From Escherichia phage SUT_E1620, in sequence record OQ939939: a stretch of DNA of 64,000 nt, one strand, 5' to 3'. Positions 44,153 to 47,826 of the stretch are shown one piece after another (position 1 is the stretch's first letter; every line of letters begins with the position of its first letter). The notes beneath the pieces were generated by a model, which saw only the letters and a list, made by a program, of their open reading frames with translations, had not been told where the DNA came from and made no database searches. Position numbers and translations under genes: made by a program.

Positions 44153-44548
44153 TCATTCATCATTTAAGCCCGAAACATAAATCCCAACACGATTTAATTG
44201 TTCTTTAGCTTCTGCGAGAATATTTGGAGTGTACTCCCAAATATCATCTTCCACCTGTAAAAGATGGGGCGAACAACCGTCATCAGGCACACGACATATG
44301 GCCAAACCACGTGGATGGAATATAGAGAAGTTTAGGGCAACAATCAAGCCCATGCTGGACAATTCATTCCAGTCAGCTTCCCAACCATCATCTTCATTTT
44401 CGTCCACAAAGACACCTACACTAGGGTCTGTTACAGAAGTAAACGGAAATGTTACACTAACCTTGTCAACCCCCCACCAACGTGCAAGGAGCCCCTCAGC
44501 ACGCTCTACCAAACTAGGATCTATCTGACGCCAAAATACTTGTTCCAT
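44153..44548 (-). CDS. hypothetical protein, paralog A of a tandem pair
   Basis: 131 aa; about 35 percent identity by eye to the adjacent 142-aa ORF (shared W..ELxxMGL..ALN...P...SP...G). Confidence 0.45.
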   Translation of the reverse strand: MEQVFWRQIDPSLVERAEGLLARWWGVDKVSVTFPFTSVTDPSVGVFVDENEDDGWEADWNELSSMGLIVALNFSIFHPRGLAICRVPDDGCSPHLLQVEDDIWEYTPNILAEAKEQLNRVGIYVSGLNDE

Positions 44549-44557
44549 TCTGCCTCC

Positions 44558-44986
44558 TTAAGCAGTTAAACCTGGGATCATATACCCGAAACGACGAAGT
44601 TTCTGAATTCCCTCATTTACTTCCTCGGGCGAATATGACCAGCCCTCACGTTCATTTACCTGGAAAGCAGGAGCTTCACCAGTGCGATAATTTACAATAA
44701 GACGGTGATTTGCAGGCATAAACAGCTTATGGTTCAAGGCAAAAACCAGACCCATTTCATCGAGTTCTTTCCAGTCTACAATCTCTTCTACTCCCTCCCC
44801 TAAATCCACGCTAACTCCAATACACGGAGCTTCCTCTAGCGGGCCTTTAAAGGATAAGAAGATATCGTTATTCTCACACCAAATCTTGAGCAGATTGATG
44901 GTTTCATTATACATACCATTAGGGAGAGAGCGCCAGAAGTTGAGAAGCATAGGATTTACCTCTTTCATGAAAATATTATTGAACAT
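44558..44986 (-). CDS. hypothetical protein, paralog B of a tandem pair
   Basis: 142 aa; homologous to adjacent 131-aa ORF. Confidence 0.45.
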   Translation of the reverse strand: MFNNIFMKEVNPMLLNFWRSLPNGMYNETINLLKIWCENNDIFLSFKGPLEEAPCIGVSVDLGEGVEEIVDWKELDEMGLVFALNHKLFMPANHRLIVNYRTGEAPAFQVNEREGWSYSPEEVNEGIQKLRRFGYMIPGLTA

Positions 44987-44988
44987 GC

Positions 44989-45528
44989 TTATACCTTAAG
45001 TTTCTGAAGAGCCTTACACATTTCAAGATCTGGACTAAATTCCAGCATATAGCTGATAGCATTTAAATCTTGAAGGTTTATTCCAGTCCTACCATTTACA
45101 ATAACAGTAGGAAATTGGTACATCATAGCACCAGCATCATCTAGGACGCACCAATGCTTGAGCTTATGTTTTTCTACGAAACGTAAGACAGAATTACCTC
45201 GAGATAAACCACCTCCAGTAAAATCTGTTGTACCAAGGAAACGATCGATCAAACCGAGCCCGGTCATAATCTGAACGTTCTCCATCTCGTTTCGTACAGA
45301 AAACCATGAAGATACCCCAACAATCATTATTGGAGAAGGTTTAAGGAAGTTCTGAAAAGCCTGGAGTAATGGCTTATAAACCCAATCACTACCAAAGAAT
45401 AGCTTTTCACTATCTGGAGCATGATGGTGAGAGATGCTCGAATTGAGCACCCCATCAATATCCAGGAAAATTATAGGAGTATTACTTATTTCCACCAGTA
45501 GCATCCCACGTCCAGACTTTAACTTCAT
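44989..45528 (-). CDS. HAD-superfamily phosphatase-like protein
   Basis: 179 aa; motif I FLDIDGVLN near N-terminus; probable start at internal Met (MLLVEISN...). Confidence 0.4.
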   Translation of the reverse strand: MKLKSGRGMLLVEISNTPIIFLDIDGVLNSSISHHHAPDSEKLFFGSDWVYKPLLQAFQNFLKPSPIMIVGVSSWFSVRNEMENVQIMTGLGLIDRFLGTTDFTGGGLSRGNSVLRFVEKHKLKHWCVLDDAGAMMYQFPTVIVNGRTGINLQDLNAISYMLEFSPDLEMCKALQKLKV

Positions 45529-45667
45529 CAGTAAAAGGAACTGGAACCTTCAGCTCACCTTTACCCCACATAACAGATAGGAACAGAGAATAAATGGTAA
45601 TCATACCGATTAGGTTGACAAACCATACTAGACCTTTCCAGATACCCTTAAAAATCTTCTTTATCAT
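45482..45667 (-). CDS. small membrane protein
   Basis: 61 aa with one hydrophobic helix (WFVNLIGMITIYSLFLSVMW). Confidence 0.3.
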   Translation of the reverse strand: MIKKIFKGIWKGLVWFVNLIGMITIYSLFLSVMWGKGELKVPVPFTDEVKVWTWDATGGNK

Positions 45668-45879
45668 TCGTTCTCCTCTAGGAACGCTTTATGTTCCGGT
45701 GTGTCGATATAGATTACACAGAAATCATCTGACATATAATCCATTTCCCACAACTCTTCACGATAGCACCATGTTTTATCTGGCCATACAATTATATCAT
45801 CAGGGTGTCTTTTAGGTGATTTGTAAAATCGGGGATCTGATCCCATATCTCCCATTTTACCCTTATTAGGATGCGACAT
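45664..45879 (-). CDS. hypothetical protein
   Basis: 71 aa; coupled to flanking genes by 4-nt overlaps. Confidence 0.3.
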   Translation of the reverse strand: MSHPNKGKMGDMGSDPRFYKSPKRHPDDIIVWPDKTWCYREELWEMDYMSDDFCVIYIDTPEHKAFLEENE

Positions 45880-46708
45880 AAATAGTTCCTTCCATAAAGG
45901 CTTCTACTTGACCAATGAAATGCTTGTTACCAAAAACTTCGGCAGCTCCAGCACGCCATACAGTAACACCACGTTTCTCATACTCAAGCTGTTCGTCATA
46001 ACGAACTTGTGGGTTAACAACCATCATCTTAGTTCCACGACATACAGCAGGAAATAGCTCCCAGTTGAAGTCGATTACTTGGTTGCTACAACCTACTACA
46101 ATAACCATATCATTGCTAGTAAGTGTATCAAACAGGTTAATCTGACCCATATACCACGGAGCCGTCTCACCAAAGAATGTTACGTTTGGTTTTACCCATT
46201 CGTAATCCTCAGGGGCAATCGCAGTATACCCAACATCTTCGATGATTTGGTTGCGACCCTGACGATAGATCACCTCTTTCAAGTACCCGTGAGCGTGAAT
46301 GATTTCATCACGAGGGATACCAGCACGTTCCAGAAGGTCATCAACGTTAGTAGTGAAGTTCTTCACGCTATCCGCACCATAACGCTGGAACCATTCTGCA
46401 ATTCGCAGATGGGCAATGTTAGGCTCAACAGTCTGTAATTCCTGACGACGCATATTGTAGAACTCATGAGTCTTGAGATACAGATCGTTACCATCTTCAT
46501 CAATGCCATGGAAACGAGCACTGAAGTAGTTAGGGTCATCTTCACCACAGAAGCGACGGAAGCCAGCTTCAAAGTTAGGCAAGCTACATACTTCCTCTAG
46601 ATCGTACTCATCCCACAAGGATTTCCCACTAGCAGTATCAGTACGGAAAGCACGAACACCACTATCTACACTCAAACCTGCACCACTAACAACGATTAGT
46701 CTACGCAT
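45866..46708 (-). CDS. Sir2-family (sirtuin-like) NAD+-binding protein lacking the Zn-ribbon
   Basis: 280 aa; sirtuin motifs in order: GAGLSVDSGVRAFR, NIAHLRIAEW, TTNVDDL, HG, FFGE, VVGCS, VVN; no Cys pairs between HG and FGE. Confidence 0.65.
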   Translation of the reverse strand: MRRLIVVSGAGLSVDSGVRAFRTDTASGKSLWDEYDLEEVCSLPNFEAGFRRFCGEDDPNYFSARFHGIDEDGNDLYLKTHEFYNMRRQELQTVEPNIAHLRIAEWFQRYGADSVKNFTTNVDDLLERAGIPRDEIIHAHGYLKEVIYRQGRNQIIEDVGYTAIAPEDYEWVKPNVTFFGETAPWYMGQINLFDTLTSNDMVIVVGCSNQVIDFNWELFPAVCRGTKMMVVNPQVRYDEQLEYEKRGVTVWRAGAAEVFGNKHFIGQVEAFMEGTIYVAS

Positions 46709-47139: not shown

Positions 47140-47826
47140 TTATTTTTCTACCTTCACACACCCATTATTAATTAAATACTCTTCCGCGACTGTAGCAGAT
47201 ATATCGAAGAATTCAGTACATCCAGCAAATCCTGTATACTTTAACCTATATCCTGAAAAGTATTCATGAGCCTGCTTCTCAATAGCTCTACTTTTAGACT
47301 TGGTACCTATATCTACTGAATAGACACCAAAAATATACAAATCCATTATATTGGAACTTTTAACTATCTCTTTCCTTCGTCTTTCAGGAGAGACACTAAT
47401 TCCTATTTTAGTTCCCATATTACTACACATAATGTATATAAAACCAGGAACACTCCAATCAGTATCACATACAGGACATCCAGAATTCTTATTCTTTACA
47501 TTACCTACTGTAGCTTCCCACGTATGCCCATACTCACATTCAAAAAGGGTTTTAGTAGCATTATTTTTATACTCTCCAATAAGGGTTATACCTCTGCCAC
47601 GTAACTCTTCGTTCACCGAATCTTTGGTAAGCTTTAAAGTACCTGAGCATATTGGACAGCCAGATTTGCTGTTCCTTACATTATTAACCGTAGCTTCCCA
47701 CGTATGACCTATATTACATCTGAACGTACCCTTACTAAGGATTCCTGAATACTCGCTTACTAGCTTAATTCTTCTAGGCTCTAAATCTTTATTGATAGTA
47801 TCTTTATCTAACTTCCTTCGTACCAT
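47140..47826 (-). CDS. T5orf172/GIY-YIG-like putative homing endonuclease with duplicated Zn-binding module
   Basis: 228 aa; two repeats of C.IGHTWEATV.NV.N..SGCP.C; C-terminal GFIYIMC....KIGIS core; sits beside nrdD. Confidence 0.5.
   Translation of the reverse strand: MVRRKLDKDTINKDLEPRRIKLVSEYSGILSKGTFRCNIGHTWEATVNNVRNSKSGCPICSGTLKLTKDSVNEELRGRGITLIGEYKNNATKTLFECEYGHTWEATVGNVKNKNSGCPVCDTDWSVPGFIYIMCSNMGTKIGISVSPERRRKEIVKSSNIMDLYIFGVYSVDIGTKSKSRAIEKQAHEYFSGYRLKYTGFAGCTEFFDISATVAEEYLINNGCVKVEK

Follow-up and report, generated by a model that had tools for sequence, protein, structure and literature searches.

A phage-only, zinc-free relative of CobB and SIRT5 in the T5-like Escherichia phage SUT_E1620

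Escherichia phage SUT_E1620 encodes a Sir2-like protein, which we analyzed in a 64,000-nucleotide stretch of the phage DNA (sequence record OQ939939; here called the window). The protein is a phage-only, zinc-free derivative of class III (CobB/SIRT5-like) sirtuins and not a defense-type SIR2. This assignment follows from its closest matches by PDB sequence search and Foldseek, from negative results with PADLOC, SIR2_2, and ThsA, and from an invariant Tyr84/Arg87 pair. The protein probably serves the phage in one of two ways, by processing damaged RNA ends or by deacylating proteins. The gene has already been annotated and discussed in the literature, and our finding is a rediscovery.

The sirtuin core and its NAD+ site

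The gene coincides exactly with one open reading frame (ORF) of 280 codons with an ATG start (Table 1). The ATG overlaps the stop codon of the preceding small ORF as TAATG, and an AGGA lies about 10 nucleotides (nt) upstream, indicating that the gene belongs to a tightly packed early operon. Pfam SIR2 (PF02146) matches the 280-residue protein with an E value of 6e-22 (6.3e-22; 78.8 bits against a cut-off of 24), and the PHROG 2162 profile matches residues 1 to 279 with an E value of 4.4e-107. We modeled the structure with AlphaFold2 on a 36-sequence alignment, obtaining a mean predicted local distance difference test (pLDDT) of 86.7 and a predicted template modeling score of 0.86. The predicted fold is that of a Rossmann-type sirtuin, and the protein is a single 280-residue domain with no fused sensor or partner. 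A first-pass annotation of this DNA had proposed structure prediction as a check, with a non-Rossmann fold counting against a sirtuin; AlphaFold2 and Foldseek both returned the sirtuin fold.

Reading along the protein, GAGLSVDSG (starting at residue 9) is followed by FR (21-22), NIAHL (97), TTNVDDL (119), HG (140-141), FGE (179), VVGCS (204), and VVN (230). The first-pass annotation had listed all sirtuin core motifs in this order, and their positions in the protein, together with the PF02146 match, confirm it. Across 36 homologues, which share 56 to 86% identity and come from several phage families, conservation is complete at about 60 positions, which include all catalytic residues. G9, A10, G11, S13, S16, G17, F21, and R22 of the NAD+ loop are among them, as are Y84, R87, and R88 of the class III signature, T120, N121, V122, and D123 of the TTNVDD motif, and G206 and S208 of VVGCS. 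In the FGE loop, G180 is replaced by H or C in a few members of the clade. The NAD+ pocket is intact, with GAGxS...FR, N121, D123, H140, S208, and N232 all in place.

Two of these motifs depart from their CobB counterparts. CobB has tQNiD where the phage protein has TTNVD, and ThsA has TTNYD; the Gln of the TQNID motif, which serves as a sirtuin-family criterion, is missing, and Thr120 is invariant in the clade. Downstream, VVGCS is followed by V211-I212-D213 where CobB has VYP. The insert at residues 47 to 76 is variable; in the 36-homologue alignment a block of about 31 columns is absent in a subclade, and the AlphaFold2 model gives the insert low pLDDT, below 50 at residues 61 to 65.

Relatedness to class III sirtuins and to defense SIR2 domains

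In a PDB sequence search, the window protein matches E. coli CobB best (1s5p, E = 1.6e-16), with Sir2Af1/2 and SIRT5 next. Foldseek agrees: its top 50 matches are all canonical sirtuins, with CobB first (template modeling score of 0.83, normalized to CobB). The YxxR pair by which class III sirtuins recognize acidic acyl groups is present as Y84/R87, which aligns with YnaR of CobB, and the Tyr/Arg pair is retained in 111 of 141 representative relatives. All NCBIfam cut-offs for CobB and deacylases are nevertheless missed, the best score being 87.9 against 243 bits (NF001753) and another 71.4 against 320 (NF040867). These scores and the clade-invariant changes at canonical sites bear out the suggestion of the first-pass annotation that the protein is probably not an ordinary housekeeping deacetylase.

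Searches for defense-type relatives (ThsA, DSR, SIR2-HerA, SPARSA, and Avs5) were negative. PADLOC defense models gave no match at E ≤ 1, and Pfam at the same threshold returned PF02146 only, with SIR2_2 not detected. When the clade profile was aligned by hhalign with the SIR2 domain of ThsA (a query sequence matching PDB 6lhx_A over residues 3 to 281), the probability was 3.7% and the GAGLS motif alone was aligned. Structural scores against defense SIR2 domains were much lower, and the closest structural neighbors are not defense SIR2 domains. Among the Pfam and PHROG assignments of the protein and its neighbors, no SLOG, HerA, pAgo/APAZ, TIR, or STAND partner is fused or adjacent to the window sirtuin, and the window locus has no adjacent or fused macrodomain gene of the kind that marks SirTM. 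At the level of motifs, Thr120 is the sole resemblance to defense SIR2 domains, namely to ThsA. The first-pass annotation had assigned the protein the architecture of immune SIR2 NAD+ hydrolases; the negative profile searches, the single-domain organization, and the retained hairpin described below speak against that assignment.

Loss of the zinc ligands

The protein has only four cysteines, C41, C54, C207, and C223, all of them outside the 37-residue segment bounded by G141 and F179. The Cys4 zinc site of the small domain, which is a sirtuin-family criterion, is therefore missing from the window protein. No CxxC occurs between HG and FGE in any of the 36 family members (0/36), in which this segment is 34 to 40 residues long. 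By alignment, the 37 residues of the window protein compare with 41 in E. coli CobB, a difference of only four. AlphaFold2 places strands at residues 141-150, 153-158, and 172-176, with pLDDT of 89 to 94 across the block, suggesting that the zinc module is kept as a confidently predicted beta-hairpin from which the four zinc ligands alone are missing. The first-pass annotation had called the module absent. This is correct for the ligands and the CxxC pairs and incorrect for the segment itself, which is retained.

To place the zinc loss among relatives, we searched 1.84 billion cluster representatives and aligned the best 150. With Thr at position 120, 36 proteins have two or fewer cysteines between HG and FGE and 10 have more; with Gln, 82 have at least three and 6 have fewer (Fisher p = 2e-17, ignoring shared ancestry). 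In the hidden Markov model (HMM) alignment of the representatives, G[SAC]S tracks Thr120 and GTS tracks Gln120. P213 (VxP) is inconsistent in the distant representatives under this alignment, and the VYP difference is applied only in comparison with CobB. This co-variation defines a wider "T120, zinc-less" clade that includes the KVP40-type proteins. The co-varying trio of Thr/Gln, G[SAC]S/GTS, and zinc cysteines could reflect a functional switch or mere shared ancestry.

Distribution and earlier reports

The window sirtuin is 99.4% identical to its counterpart in Salmonella phage S124 and 99.2% identical to that of Escherichia phage TrudiRoth (Bas30), both T5-like phages of the genus Epseptimavirus, family Demerecviridae. 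The window thus comes from a T5-like phage (Epseptimavirus). An annotation note gives T5.102 as the orthologue in T5. Near copies occur in 223 phage records, where they are labeled "Sir2-like protein" or "NAD-dependent deacetylase of SIR2 family." In a collection of 5.8 billion proteins, the named homologues all come from phages or phage-sized contigs, and a search with a more distant clade member retrieved 1013 phage records, including Vequintavirinae, KVP40-like Vibrio phages, Campylobacter phages, and jumbo phages. The clade is confined to phages. The full-length PHROG 2162 match and the phage-only distribution place the window protein within it.

The first-pass annotation could not tell whether the gene had been characterized. 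It is annotated in hundreds of genomes and has been discussed twice (PMC5107563, 2016; PMC9503650, 2022). Skliros et al. (PMC5107563) reported that the Sir2/CobB proteins of KVP40-type phages lack the zinc ligands, and included T5 in their list of carriers. Iyer et al. (PMC9503650) found that most viral sirtuins form a distinct clade, for which they predicted a KptA-like role in RNA repair; one of their three conserved neighborhoods, typified by phage SP15, joins the sirtuin to a "Swiss-army-knife" HAD phosphatase. Genome announcements name the sirtuin gene without experiments, and phage Shivani lacks it. No biochemical or genetic study of a phage sirtuin was found in the literature searched.

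Gene neighborhoods and joint losses

Downstream of the window sirtuin lies a gene for a 179-residue HAD protein (Table 1). Pfam PF18143 (HAD_SAK_2) matches this protein with an E value of 4.6e-19 over positions 1 to 138 of its 139-position profile, and Pfam describes the family as "HAD domain in Swiss Army Knife RNA repair proteins." A PDB sequence search with the HAD protein gave no match. We scanned 60 fetched viral loci with sirtuin relatives, the window, and two earlier loci (62 viral loci). HAD_SAK_2 is near the sirtuin in 31 loci, all on contigs of T5-like size, and in 30 of the 31 it lies within about 1.3 kb, at positions varying from +124 to +1323 nt. In Erwinia phage KEY the HAD gene precedes the sirtuin instead of following it, and in the divergent locus L061 (38% identical) the two genes are separated by 2.4 kb.

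A second lineage of about 15 loci, among them Proteus phage Mydo, Klebsiella phage BIS47, and Erwinia phage Hena1, carries sirtuins that are 45 to 59% identical. In the Mydo-like order, a calcineurin-like phosphoesterase, a T4 Rnl1-like RNA ligase (PF09511), and a P-loop kinase (AAA_33) precede the sirtuin; next, starting directly at the sirtuin stop, comes an ATP-dependent ligase (a DNA ligase), and then a MazG-like protein. This order independently reproduces the published neighborhood (PMC9503650). A nearby RNA-end-processing enzyme, taken as a mark of the phage clade, is represented by HAD_SAK_2 in the window and by the RNA ligase, the kinase, and the second ligase in the Mydo-like loci.

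In Bas34 SelmaRatti (locus L072, 2210-2659), a natural deletion has left a chimeric ORF, labeled "Sir2-like," that fuses Sir2 residues 1 to 130 to HAD residues 128 to 179; the junction lies at a shared AG, between ERAG and AMMYQ. In DT57C (locus L071, 2354-2626), a different deletion joins Sir2 residues from about 197 to 250 to HAD residues 143 to 179. The two deletions are independent events; in each, both genes have lost their catalytic parts, and the downstream pair of DUF7415 genes is still present. The sirtuin/HAD module is accessory rather than essential, and both enzymes are lost together. As both are viable laboratory phages, DT57C and Bas34 amount to ready-made double knock-outs.

RNA-end phosphates as the possible acceptor

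Sirtuins and Tpt1 both ADP-ribosylate an oxygen nucleophile first and then resolve the adduct through attack by the 2''-OH of ADP-ribose. In SIRT5 and CobB, YxxR binds carboxylates; by analogy, it could equally well hold a phosphate. This reaction parallel and the clade-specific changes at canonical deacylase positions lead us to favor an RNA-end acceptor, as do the two independent repair-type neighborhoods and the joint loss of sirtuin and HAD. We therefore propose, tentatively and at somewhat less than an even chance, that the phage sirtuin carries out KptA-like ADP-ribosyl transfer to RNA-end phosphates. The enzyme, predicted to be catalytically competent, would bind NAD+, expel nicotinamide, and ADP-ribosylate, at an anionic oxygen, a macromolecular acceptor located near Tyr84/Arg87. 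His140 would activate a ribose hydroxyl, and the adduct would be resolved. With a damaged RNA end supplying the acceptor phosphate, the protein would remove the 2'-phosphate in a reaction of the KptA/Tpt1 type and yield ADP-ribose cyclic phosphate. The HAD phosphatase might then trim terminal phosphates or the ADP-ribose phosphate by-product, and the phage would thereby be helped to survive host defenses that cleave RNA or tRNA. This RNA-repair scheme is a prediction of Iyer et al. (2022; PMC9503650, section 3.7.3), re-derived here for two phage lineages.

Several observations weigh against this proposal. It is gene neighborhood alone that points to the acceptor, and the linkage of sirtuin and HAD within T5-like phages is weak evidence because these genomes are broadly syntenic. 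In three T5-like loci the sirtuin is present without a HAD gene. By tblastn, no RNA ligase, kinase, phosphoesterase, MazG-like protein, or ATP-dependent ligase was found at E < 0.2 in the window or in the whole of Bas30. With no RNA ligase or polynucleotide kinase homologue in either, a T5-like repair pathway would need host enzymes. No RNA-repair neighbors were recognized within about 7 kb of the sirtuin in Vequintavirus (V5-like) and KVP40-like loci. The Vequintavirus neighbors comprise, by Pfam, only DUFs and a metallophosphatase 6 kb away and, by PHROGs, methyltransferase-like, DprA-like, and NinI-like proteins and unknowns; BLASTP of these neighbors against the Mydo-type RNA ligase and kinase gave nothing significant. 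NAD+ salvage genes lie close to the sirtuin in Mydo and in jumbo phage Munch, suggesting that sirtuin neighborhoods are mixed metabolic regions. They encode NAMPT and phosphoribosyl pyrophosphate synthetase in Mydo (locus L068, 1-1133) and an adenylyltransferase and NAPRT in Munch (locus L066, 551-3733). Finally, the closest relatives in sequence and structure are all protein deacylases, and YxxR is a desuccinylase signature.

The last point leads directly to the strongest alternative, which comes close behind RNA-end chemistry and is itself a realistic possibility: a CobB/SIRT5-like lysine deacylase, probably preferring succinyl or malonyl groups, that remodels host or phage proteins in early infection and has replaced its zinc site by other packing. 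Besides the CobB match in the PDB, all the residues that deacylation requires are retained (F21, R22, N121, D123, H140, and the FGE loop), and Y84/R87 aligns with the acidic-acyl recognition pair of CobB and SIRT5. The same view was taken of the zinc-less Vibrio phage homologues (PMC5107563). The host, however, already supplies CobB, the clade is found only in phages, and the protein scores far below every curated CobB cut-off. Its invariant changes, Thr for Gln, GCS for GTS, and VI(N/D) for the VYP strand of the peptide-binding groove, also argue against a deacylase, as do the nucleic-acid end-processing neighbors in two lineages and the lack of a protein-modification partner there.

We consider it improbable that the protein is an NAD+ glycohydrolase or a protein ADP-ribosyltransferase acting on the host NAD+ pool or on host proteins, so as to mimic or counter NAD+-depleting defenses. 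The missing zinc ligands and the likeness of TTN(V)D, through Thr120, to TTNYD of ThsA would fit such an activity. So would the NAD+ synthesis genes often co-encoded with the sirtuin (in Bas30, Mydo, and Munch), as expected of a heavy NAD+ consumer; the Bas30 genes are a NadR-like/PnuC NARP3 pair at 69803-71537, beyond the window end by coordinate offset. Against it stand the blank PADLOC and SIR2_2 searches, the poor hhalign result with ThsA, and the absence of a macrodomain, sensor, or HerA/pAgo/TIR partner nearby. F21 is also retained, a residue that in deacylases shields the intermediate from water. Moreover, the phage ligase requires NAD+, and related phages devote genes to NAD+ regeneration; since close relatives use an NAD-dependent DNA ligase and carry NARP3 genes, bulk NAD+ depletion would likely harm the phage. 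A decaying or noncatalytic remnant maintained by synteny alone would suit a gene that is dispensable, being missing or truncated in Shivani, DT57C, and Bas34, yet the intact frame, the invariance of every catalytic residue, and occurrence in about 1000 phage records make this very hard to credit.

Returning to RNA-end chemistry, its fullest form would make the protein the first sirtuin-fold enzyme to act on nucleic acid, one that uses NAD+ to remove or ADP-ribosylate terminal or 2'-phosphates of RNA and works with HAD_SAK_2 to undo the damage done by tRNA- or RNA-cleaving host defenses. We regard this stronger claim as doubtful. If it is true, the Mydo-like sirtuin would also partner with the RNA ligase and kinase, and the change from Q to T, the change from GTS to G[SAC]S, and the zinc loss would mark a switch from peptide to RNA substrates. 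The idea of a nucleic-acid sirtuin was published as a prediction in 2022, and only its proof would be new. The clade is present in about 1000 phage genomes (T5-like, Vequintavirinae, KVP40-like, and jumbo phages), many of them model or therapy phages. An RNA-end repair activity would bring nucleic acids into the range of sirtuin chemistry and would represent a new countermeasure against tRNA-cleaving defenses; a deacylase activity would clearly exemplify how a lytic phage can alter the acylation of host proteins.

Other genes around the sirtuin

Table 1. Sirtuin gene, its motifs, and neighboring genes in window coordinates
Feature	Position	Strand	Remarks
Sirtuin gene	45866..46708	-	280 residues; orthologue of T5.102 and of Bas30_0054 "Sir2-like protein"
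NAD+-binding loop GAGLSVDSGVRAFR (residues 9-22)	46643..46684	-	Aligns to CobB GAGISAESGIRTFR
Variable insert, helical part of small domain (residues 47-76)	46481..46570	-	No counterpart in CobB
Class III signature Y84-N-M-R87-R88 (YxxR anion-binding pair)	46445..46459	-	Aligns to CobB fYnaRRrql
TTNVDD (residues 119-124)	46337..46354	-	Catalytic-pocket Asn121 and Asp123; Thr120 for canonical Gln
Catalytic His140-Gly141	46286..46291	-	Invariant; aligns to CobB HG
Zinc-less remnant of zinc-ribbon module (residues 142-178)	46175..46285	-	Zero cysteines
FGE loop (residues 179-181)	46166..46174	-	F178, F179, and E181 invariant
VVGCS (residues 204-208), GTS-motif equivalent	46085..46099	-	Aligns to CobB iGTSghVYPaa
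VVN (residues 230-232), adenine-ribose side of NAD+ site	46013..46021	-	N232 invariant
Two small ORFs (71 and 61 residues) between sirtuin and HAD	45482..45879	-	PHROG 5116 and PHROG 11166, unknown function
HAD_SAK_2 phosphatase gene	44989..45528	-	179 residues, intact DIDGV motif; 338 nt downstream of sirtuin, same operon
Two tandem DUF7415 paralogues (T5.106/T5.107-like)	44153-44548, 44558-44986	-	Just downstream of HAD gene
228-residue ORF	47140-47826	-	Treble-clef zinc finger (DUF4379), CapR, T5orf172/MUG113; PHROG endonuclease

The two small ORFs between sirtuin and HAD vary in presence and position among T5-like loci. The 71-residue ORF (45664-45879, minus strand) overlaps the sirtuin stop by 14 nt and has a sequence of the type WPDKTWCY...W..DYMSDD; its true start may be an internal Met, since the PHROG match begins only at residue 22. 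The DUF7415 pair is conserved beside the sirtuin in all T5-like loci examined. It was considered as part of the module and set aside, as it is retained when Sir2 and HAD are deleted; a PDB sequence search with DUF7415 gave only spurious leucine-rich-repeat matches.

Several RefSeq phage records label the HAD_SAK_2 gene "Sir2 (NAD-dependent deacetylase)." One case is Salmonella phage 1-29, in which two genes bear the name "Sir2": gp112 is the true one and gp110 is the HAD gene (locus L073, 1625-2140). PHROG 18062, a 92-position profile named "Sir2," matches the C-terminal half of the HAD protein. This mislabeling probably stems from Sir2-HAD deletion chimeras such as the "defective Sir2" of DT57C.

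Upstream of the sirtuin are small ORFs, a homing-endonuclease-like ORF, and nrdD. The 228-residue ORF sits between nrdD and the sirtuin, is absent from this place in Bas30, and has homologues elsewhere in eight other loci; it is probably a mobile homing endonuclease. Across the window (1-64000), the GC skew flips sign at about 22 and 50 kb, in step with changes of coding strand: structural genes lie on the plus strand, early replication and nucleotide genes on the minus strand, and the nrdAB/td/frd genes on the plus strand. No tRNA genes were found within the 64-kb window; T5-like phages carry a large tRNA cluster further along the genome. In a Vequintavirus-like locus (L003, 3942-4211), a gene of the Acb2/Tad1-hairpin family, a family of anti-CBASS/anti-Thoeris sponges, precedes the sirtuin by about 4 kb and has the same orientation.

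Comparison with known systems

KptA/Tpt1 belongs to an unrelated fold and sequence family, and its relation to the phage sirtuin would be one of functional analogy only. The proposed common step is NAD+-dependent ADP-ribosyl transfer to a phosphate oxygen, resolved by the 2''-OH of ADP-ribose (PMC9503650 and our own reasoning).

Defense SIR2 NAD+ hydrolases (ThsA, DSR2, SIR2-HerA, KomC, and the SIR2 of Avs5) are of the same superfamily as the phage sirtuin and have GAGxS, the Asn, and the His in common with it. They likewise lack zinc and have a Thr before the catalytic Asn, as in WTTNYD of ThsA. Unlike these proteins, the phage sirtuin has no sensor or partner, keeps the class III FR, YxxR, and FGE, and lacks profile similarity to them.

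CobB and the other class III sirtuins (SIRT5, Sir2Af1, and PfSir2A) have the fold, the NAD+ pocket, and the catalytic His/Asn/Asp in common with the phage sirtuin, as well as the YxxR pair and a similar length from HG to FGE. Compared with CobB, the phage protein is about 27% identical, has lost the zinc ligands, has a 30-residue variable insert, and carries Thr for Gln in TQNID, GCS for GTS, and VID for VYP.

The Sir2/CobB of KVP40-like Vibrio phages (PMC5107563) falls within the same wider T120 zinc-less clade. It differs in belonging to another phage family, in adjoining gyrB, and in having no HAD gene; the representative P0131 bridges the groups, being 52% identical to the phi-pp2 protein and about 39% identical to the T5-like proteins. 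The T5-like phage SP15 has HAD_SAK_2 as a neighbor of its sirtuin, as in the window (PMC9503650). Copies differ slightly in length, the window protein having 280 residues and that of Bas30 283. The window protein is a member of the known phage sirtuin family (T5.102, PHROG 2162, and the clade of Iyer et al. 2022), from which it shows no material difference.

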